Assembly (NCBI RefSeq): GCF_003334405.1
Contig: NZ_QOWM01000007.1
DNA: 64,000 nt
Origin: Escherichia coli
Lineage (GTDB): Bacteria > Pseudomonadota > Gammaproteobacteria > Enterobacterales > Enterobacteriaceae
Direction: 5' to 3' (one strand)
Numbering within the stretch: the stretch's first letter is position 1; every line of letters starts with the position of its first letter. Made by a program: the position numbers and the translations under genes. Shown here one piece after another: positions 52,250 through 52,389 of this stretch. Under the pieces are notes generated by a model. It did no database searches. It was not told the origin of the DNA and saw only the letters and a list, made by a program, of their open reading frames with translations.

Positions 52250-52263
52250 TGGCACTGCCAATT
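52250..52263. promoter_or_regulatory. candidate LldR operator half-palindrome (TGGCACTGCCAATT) proximal to lldP
   Basis: Partial match to the AATTGGCCCTACCAATT-type LldR operator, 76-89 bp upstream of the lldP ATG and about 125 bp from the stronger site. Confidence 0.4.
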
Positions 52264-52372
52264 GTGTTGTGTAGGGATAATGACAATGAATGGTTAACTA
52301 AATGTTATGTGTTGGCAACATTGATGTGAGTTTTAATTGGGAAATTGTGAACCAGAGGTCAGATAAGCGAAG

Positions 52373-52389
52373 AATTGGTAGGGCCAATT
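52373..52389. promoter_or_regulatory. LldR operator AATTGGTAGGGCCAATT (distal site of the lldPRD promoter)
   Basis: 17-bp sequence that is the reverse complement of AATTGGCCCTACCAATT, read directly about 200 bp upstream of lldP. Confidence 0.6.

Follow-up and report, generated by a model that had tools for sequence, protein, structure and literature searches.

Here we describe the control region of the lldPRD operon in a 64-kb stretch of Escherichia coli DNA (hereafter the window), in which two palindromic sites, O1 and O2, precede an lldP-lldR-lldD operon with an intact lldR. All three genes lie on the minus strand and score above their NCBIfam cut-offs: lldP (50519..52174), encoding a 551-aa L-lactate permease (1198 bits for the equivalog NF007740, whose cut-off is 918, with the same assignment in the RefSeq annotation of identical DNA); lldR (49743..50519), encoding a 258-aa GntR/FadR-family regulator (equivalog NF007741, 499.7 bits against 311); and lldD (48556..49746), encoding a 396-aa FMN-dependent L-lactate dehydrogenase (NF033901, 824 bits against 550). 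The upstream gene, yibL (52546-52908, minus strand), is likewise above its curated cut-off (NF008244). The lldP start codon is the ATG at 52174-52172, preceded by an AGGAG Shine-Dalgarno sequence at 52186-52182; as lldP is on the minus strand, positions upstream of it have higher coordinates. Two further candidate reading frames, one lengthening the lldP ORF as far as the ATG at 52201 and the other a separate upstream ORF of 17 codons that starts with the ATG at 52224, were rejected as non-coding after neither frame proved to be conserved in Kluyvera or Silvania.

The distal boundary of the lldPRD control region is set by an intrinsic-terminator-like hairpin of yibL (52418..52447, minus strand), a 13-bp stem followed by a T-run. 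Between this terminator and the yibL stop codon lies a REP-type palindromic element, GCCGGATGCGGCGTGAACACCTTACTCGGCC (52450-52506, minus strand), which gives a sub-threshold match to the Rfam family naRNA4 (27.3 bits against 59.5); all Rfam matches in the region (STnc380, naRNA4 and mir-744) fell under their gathering scores and were set aside. The DNA upstream of O1 (52390-52545) is polymorphic in E. coli, with at least 80% of a 501-nt query covered in 2879 of 5421 genomes. The place just upstream of the lldP control region, which in the window and in K-12 holds the REP element and yibL, is taken in O157:H7 and others by ehaG, a gene for a large YadA-like trimeric autotransporter adhesin. Additionally, 35 places on E. 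coli plasmids match the lldP-coding part only, without the promoter (for example the 132-kb NZ_OZ546942.1, at 87% identity over 148 nt), and the plasmid lldP homologues are therefore without the O1/O2 control region.

Each of the two sites upstream of lldP is an inverted repeat of 17 bp that belongs to the LldR-box type AAnTGGnnnnnCCAnTT. O1, the distal, high-affinity operator (52373..52389, minus strand), is a perfect 6+5+6 inverted repeat with the sense-strand sequence AATTGGCCCTACCAATT; in a pattern search of the whole 64-kb window it has no mismatch to AATTGGN5CCAATT, and the sequence-only reading was thus right to take its plus-strand string, AATTGGTAGGGCCAATT, as a full match to the LldR operator. 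O2, the proximal and weaker operator (52247..52263, minus strand), reads AATTGGCAGTGCCACTT on the sense strand and AAGTGGCACTGCCAATT as a plus-strand 17-mer, with a single mismatch, located in one arm. The earlier reading had described only a half-site here, TGGCACTGCCAATT at 52250-52263; its coordinates stand, but an extension by 3 nt yields the complete 17-mer, and the half-site label has to be dropped. The two operators are 126 bp apart, whether counted start-to-start or centre-to-centre, leaving a gap of 109 nt and corresponding to 12.0 helical turns at 10.5 bp per turn, in keeping with the claim of an operator pair about 125 bp apart upstream of lldP. Measured from the A of the lldP ATG at 52174, the centre of O2 is at 81 nt and that of O1 at 207 nt.

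Could two such palindromes be functionless products of chance? When three mismatches are allowed, AATTGGN5CCAATT is not enriched in the window at all (27 observed against 43 expected), which speaks for chance at that level of similarity and means that the signal consists of two near-perfect sites rather than of a general property of the sequence. At one mismatch or fewer, in contrast, O1 and O2 are the only matches in the 64-kb window (0.34 expected from dinucleotide shuffles, with two or more matches anywhere in the window in 6 of 100 shuffles), and both are found, at a distance of 126 bp, in the single intergenic region leading into lldP. Two matches within 200 bp of each other never occurred in 5000 mononucleotide shuffles, and by analytic calculation about 8e-5 such pairs would be expected per window. 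As the boxes are, moreover, kept across genera and bound experimentally (PMC10272880), an origin by chance is so improbable that we consider it excluded, the cited evidence having already refuted it.

The region is nearly indistinguishable from that of the characterised E. coli sites. Over 411 nt there is one substitution relative to K-12 MG1655 (NC_000913.3); it is the single difference in the yibL-lldP intergenic region and lies outside both boxes: at 52311 (about -27), in the promoter spacer after the -35, the window has C and K-12 has T. Other E. coli strains also have T at this position, as K-12 does. The alignment with characterised O1 and O2 that had been proposed as a check accordingly finds both boxes identical to those of MG1655, and a 501-nt stretch around the operators is 100% identical to one RefSeq chromosome, in which lldP and yibL are annotated on the flanks. 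The 2008 study of Aguilera et al. (J Bacteriol 190:2997) reportedly placed the transcription start 110 nt upstream of the lldP ATG, O1 at -105 to -89 and O2 at +22 to +38. Counted from the ATG at 52174, the 110-nt figure puts +1 at 52284, and the operator positions then convert to 52389-52373 for O1 and 52263-52247 for O2, an exact fit to the palindromes that in turn supports these figures.

Published binding data on the same sequences point in the same direction. Table 1 of Anzai et al. 2023 gives the LldR boxes under the lldP peak as AAtTGGcCctACCAaTT and AAgTGGcactgCCAaTT, so that both 17-mers are the published LldR boxes of the lldP promoter, in accord with the original LldR operator reading (PMC10272880). 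Against the published LldR box AAnTGGTCnGACCAnTT, O1 scores 12/14 and O2 10/14; the lldP peak is the strongest in LldR genomic SELEX (intensity 62.9) and was confirmed by gel shift, its authors note that the two boxes match the pair reported by Aguilera et al. in 2008, and lactate induction is lost without lldR (PMC10272880). Furthermore, LldR is described by San Martin et al. 2013 as requiring AATTGGCCCTACCAATT (PMC3582500), while operator sequences or positions are absent from PMC9775004 (on Salmonella LldR), PMC8827060 and PMC6731338. We are therefore highly confident that the palindromes are O1 and O2 of the E. coli lldPRD promoter, bound by LldR under a proposed loop model; the feature is already known and well characterised, and nothing contradicts the operator assignment.

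Placing the operators within the promoter brings out a point that the earlier reading had omitted, namely that O2 is downstream of the transcription start, within the 5' leader. Given an inferred +1 at 52284 (minus strand), as implied by the published distance of 110 nt from the A of the lldP start codon, a probable weak sigma-70 core promoter can be read at 52290..52318 (minus strand), with TTGCCA at 52318-52313 as the likely -35, a 17-nt spacer, and AACCAT at 52295-52290 as the likely -10. A consensus scan of 52100-52600 returned no sigma-70 promoter at a threshold of 9/12, which fits a promoter needing LldR as activator. In the sense direction, the order of elements is thus the yibL terminator, O1, a poorly conserved stretch, the -35, an ArcA-like box overlapping the -10, +1, O2, a leader of about 70 nt, AGGAG and ATG. 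The core promoter is the most conserved block between the boxes, at 67-73% invariant positions.

The ArcA-box-like sequence, GTTAACTAAATGTTA (52293..52307, plus strand), overlaps the -10 and the spacer and has one mismatch to GTTAATTAAATGTTA, the 15-bp ArcA box consensus used for scoring. At up to two mismatches it is the only match in 64 kb, where 0.13 would be expected. ArcA is documented as a repressor of lldPRD, with its operator located between O1 and O2 (PMC8689689, PMC3798270), and GTTAACTAAATGTTA is likely the site of anaerobic repression by ArcA-P.

Several smaller elements accompany this core. CCAATT at 52335-52340 (sense ..AATTTCCCAATT..) was considered as a third half-site and rejected as an operator, being unconserved outside Escherichia and having 6 mismatches when extended to a 17-mer. 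Two TCACA pentamers 21 nt apart (52325-52350, minus strand; about -66..-62 and -45..-41) are conserved across enterobacterial lldP promoters and, as a pair, may form a site for a further factor, perhaps tied to catabolite control. Downstream of O2 (52205-52246, minus strand), the leader harbors two blocks, TTTTACAC-N4-TGTGAC (52246-52229) and GAGATGAGC..CAGACTCA (about 52228-52205), both kept from Escherichia to Kluyvera and Silvania; these could form small hairpins (CACA/UGUG and UGAG/CUCA) or bind another factor.

We also considered whether the O1 palindrome is a hairpin of a plus-strand antisense sRNA instead of a DNA operator. The Rfam model RF02055 (STnc380, an enterobacterial sRNA candidate) matches 52348-52456 on the plus strand over its full length with an E-value of about 1e-5, hairpin 1 of the model corresponding to the O1 palindrome and hairpin 2 to the yibL terminator. 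Its 36.4 bits are nonetheless well under the gathering score of 60, both stems are accounted for by known DNA-level elements (operator palindrome and terminator), and an sRNA would leave O2 without explanation on DNA to which LldR binding is published (PMC10272880). The sRNA reading is thus very improbable; conversely, RF02055 may itself largely model DNA-level elements of the lldP-yibL spacer.

The arrangement of O1 and O2 is conserved. Of 5426 complete E. coli genomes, 5421 carry one copy of the 166-bp operator region. In 8 divergent E. coli strains (about 92-100% identity) each box has one substitution at most, and the DNA separating the boxes is free of indels but substituted at about 17 positions. 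To look across species, we ran a pattern scan of one genome per species with gaps of 94-124 nt allowed, from which 120 matches were listed; our statements concern these matches and carry no inference about Salmonella, Citrobacter or other genera outside them. Among the matches listed, lldP-linked pairs at 126 bp occur in E. whittamii, three Kluyvera species, Silvania and one further enterobacterial genome besides E. coli, and pairs at 125 bp in E. albertii and Pantoea; beyond these, a proteobacterial MAG has a pair at 124 bp, and Acidovorax and Paracidovorax have pairs at 115 and 117 bp. Of 8 sequences from Escherichia, Kluyvera, Silvania and the further enterobacterial genome, 7 have a gap of 109 nt; the eighth, from E. 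albertii, has one of 108 nt. The spacings lie near whole helical turns, compatible with phasing, in what is a small, pattern-selected sample among the matches listed. A MAG contig labelled 'uncultured Oscillospiraceae' (CALXDF010000207.1) carries an lldP 100% identical to that of E. coli along with identical O1 and O2, and is most likely a mis-binned E. coli contig.

In the enterobacterial alignment, 94% of positions are invariant in O1 and 88% in O2, against 24% in the interval from O1 to the -35 and 5% in the DNA upstream of O1; since 21 of the 34 positions in the two boxes were set by the pattern used for retrieval, invariance of the boxes in the cross-species set is partly circular, and what that set shows independently is the spacing, the gene context and a conservation of 4/5 in each inner 5-mer. 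That the boxes and their 126-bp spacing have been kept over several enterobacterial genera while the DNA between them diverged fits a model of looping between sites on the same face of the helix.

Under this model, in the absence of lactate an LldR dimer (a FadR-type GntR protein and the product of the same operon) would occupy each of O1 and O2. Because the centres are 126 bp apart, or 12 helical turns on the same DNA face, the two dimers are proposed to touch, and the contact between them would loop out the probable weak sigma-70 promoter, which the operators bracket along with the ArcA-like box, resulting in repression. Lactate would alter the conformation of LldR such that the loop, or the contact with O2, is lost; LldR at O1 (near -97) would then turn activator, with O2 (near +30) sitting in the transcribed leader. 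The same-face looping model and the weight of operator distance have been put forward previously (PMC8689689), as has a tetramer-loop cartoon model (PMC5412874), and the suggestion in the sequence-only reading that the spacing fits two-operator looping thus agrees with a model published for the lldPRD promoter, the loop being a proposal there as well. LldR binding and the dual role of LldR as repressor and activator come from the literature on the identical sequence (PMC10272880, PMC8689689). The DNA loop at lldPRD is accordingly a proposed mechanism rather than a demonstrated structure, and we found no direct visualisation of an LldR loop in the cited lldPRD literature.

In an alternative mechanism, LldR would bind both sites without a loop: at O2 (+22..+38) it would act as a roadblock to promoter escape or elongation, O1 would be an independent activator site, and the 126-bp spacing would be incidental or otherwise constrained. 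A location inside the transcribed leader is the classic position for a roadblock. In published deletions, induction was abolished when the stretch from the -10 to O2 was shortened by 10 bp, whereas shortening the stretch from O1 to the -35 by as much made no difference (PMC8689689). These deletions are no clean test of looping, though; a 10-bp deletion keeps the helical phase, and the result is therefore compatible with looping too. Against an incidental spacing stands its constancy in genera with strongly diverged intervening DNA, where it is 126 bp and, in two cases, 125 bp, as do the other lldP-linked pairs at 115, 117 and 124 bp, all near whole helical turns. Phase-changing mutants are further said, in the 2008 work of Aguilera as paraphrased in PMC8689689, to behave like O2 mutants, which counts against the roadblock. 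On balance, we think it unlikely that LldR controls lldPRD from both sites without looping.

A second question is which regulator binds, given that the motif is shared with the promoters of pdhR. Among the 120 matches listed, at least 60 immediately precede a pdhR orthologue (393-432 bits for the PdhR equivalog of NCBIfam). Among those listed, the pdhR-linked pairs belong to Vibrio, Aliivibrio, Salinivibrio, Aeromonas, Plesiomonas and Lonsdalea and have spacings of 133-141 bp, with a mode of 137; their boxes are two perfect or near-perfect copies of AATTGGTnnnACCAATT (loci L008 (3478-3631), L014, L016, L018, L030, L034, L101 and about 50 more). At least 9 others of the 120 matches listed fall between a divergent Pseudomonas-type lldR and lldP or lldD, at least 10 adjoin other GntR genes (notably in Paenibacillus, at 125-127 bp), and at least 18 are without pdhR, lld or GntR neighbours and may be chance. 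In E. coli K-12, pdhR has a single box, AATTGGTAAGACCAATT (L128:545-561), 32-48 nt before the start codon and with the same arms; no second box was found at the E. coli pdhR promoter at up to 3 mismatches. Because of this sharing, the assignment to LldR rests on gene context and published experiments, not on the string itself.

It is possible, then, that O1 above all is an operator of the paralogous pyruvate sensor PdhR, besides or instead of LldR, and that pyruvate and lactate signals are integrated here. The association with pdhR-linked pairs and the identical arms of the single E. coli pdhR operator lend this some weight, and the inner bases detract from it: those of O1 and O2 (GGCC.. and GGCA..) differ from GGT...ACC, a core that nearly all boxes linked to pdhR have among the matches listed, and O2 is the poorer match to the PdhR box AATTGGTnnnACCAATT, with GC/GC inner bases and one mismatched arm. 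The adjoining operon, moreover, is lldPRD, with pdhR elsewhere in the genome. An effect of PdhR on an lldP-lacZ fusion was reportedly excluded in the 2008 study of Aguilera, which again counts against PdhR. Published binding data cut both ways, as O1 matches the PdhR box at 13/14 under a PdhR genomic-SELEX peak and lldPRD mRNA rises 3.3-fold in a pdhR mutant (PMC7660256), and PdhR is named as an lldPRD regulator elsewhere too (PMC10272880), but lldP is also the strongest LldR gSELEX peak in the genome, and lactate induction needs lldR (PMC10272880). We regard it as somewhat unlikely that the boxes, O1 above all, are PdhR operators besides or instead of being LldR operators; PdhR binding at O1 is a live secondary possibility, as an added regulatory layer rather than a replacement of LldR.

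Returning to LldR as the regulator of this promoter, the analysis confirms that a well-characterised regulatory element had been recognised from the letters of the DNA by themselves. This matters little for the window itself, but makes the O1/O2 region a useful positive control for operator-finding. The lldPRD control element underlies widely used lactate biosensors. What the analysis adds is comparative, with the two-box promoters across the LldR/PdhR clade as the one mildly new lead. The arrangement of the boxes suggests two-site, possibly loop-type, autoregulation by PdhR in Vibrio, Aliivibrio, Salinivibrio, Aeromonas, Plesiomonas and Lonsdalea. Perhaps the whole LldR/PdhR branch of the FadR-type regulators inherited from its ancestor a general layout with two AATTGGN5CCAATT boxes about 12-13 helical turns apart, which would then be no peculiarity of E. 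coli lldPRD; we hold this conjecture tentatively and would sooner expect it to fail than to hold. If it were true, loop-type or cooperative two-site repression would extend to PdhR autoregulation in many bacteria, and the single-box pdhR of E. coli would be a derived exception.

Among known systems, the layout resembles the lac (O1/O2/O3), gal (OE/OI) and ara (O2/I1) loops, in which the promoter is likewise bracketed by auxiliary operators, one upstream and one downstream, that share a helical face, as O1 and O2 would by their spacing. Unlike in these, LldR is a dimer of the GntR/FadR type that is also an activator from O1, and the lldPRD loop would be short (126 bp) and is, so far, a proposal. 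The E. coli pdhR-aceEF-lpd operator AATTGGTAAGACCAATT shares with lldPRD the 6-bp arms and the spacer of 5 bp and is bound by a paralogous FadR-type GntR regulator; it differs from lldPRD in its single box, its GGT/ACC inner core and its response to pyruvate rather than lactate. The pdhR promoters of Vibrionaceae, Aeromonadaceae, Plesiomonas and Lonsdalea likewise have an AATTGGN5CCAATT pair upstream of an operon, roughly 13 turns apart there, but with PdhR as the regulator, another operon, and spacings of 133-141 bp (mode 137) as opposed to 126 bp.

A further comparison is with the Pseudomonas-type lldR/lldP(D) loci, among the matches listed those of Marinobacter, Pseudomonas, Kushneria and Cobetia, in which a lactate operon is again governed by an intergenic region with two boxes of the same type. 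There, lldR is divergent instead of lying inside the operon, its product has 41-43% identity to E. coli LldR, and the spacing is 138-141 bp (121 bp in Cobetia). The LldR of P. aeruginosa, reportedly the subject of Gao et al. in 2012, belongs to a system of this Pseudomonas type. Closest of all is lldPRD of K-12, with which the window shares both 17-mers, the 126-bp spacing, the position relative to lldP and the operon structure; the operators are without difference, and the single C/T substitution at 52311 (-27) falls between the boxes.
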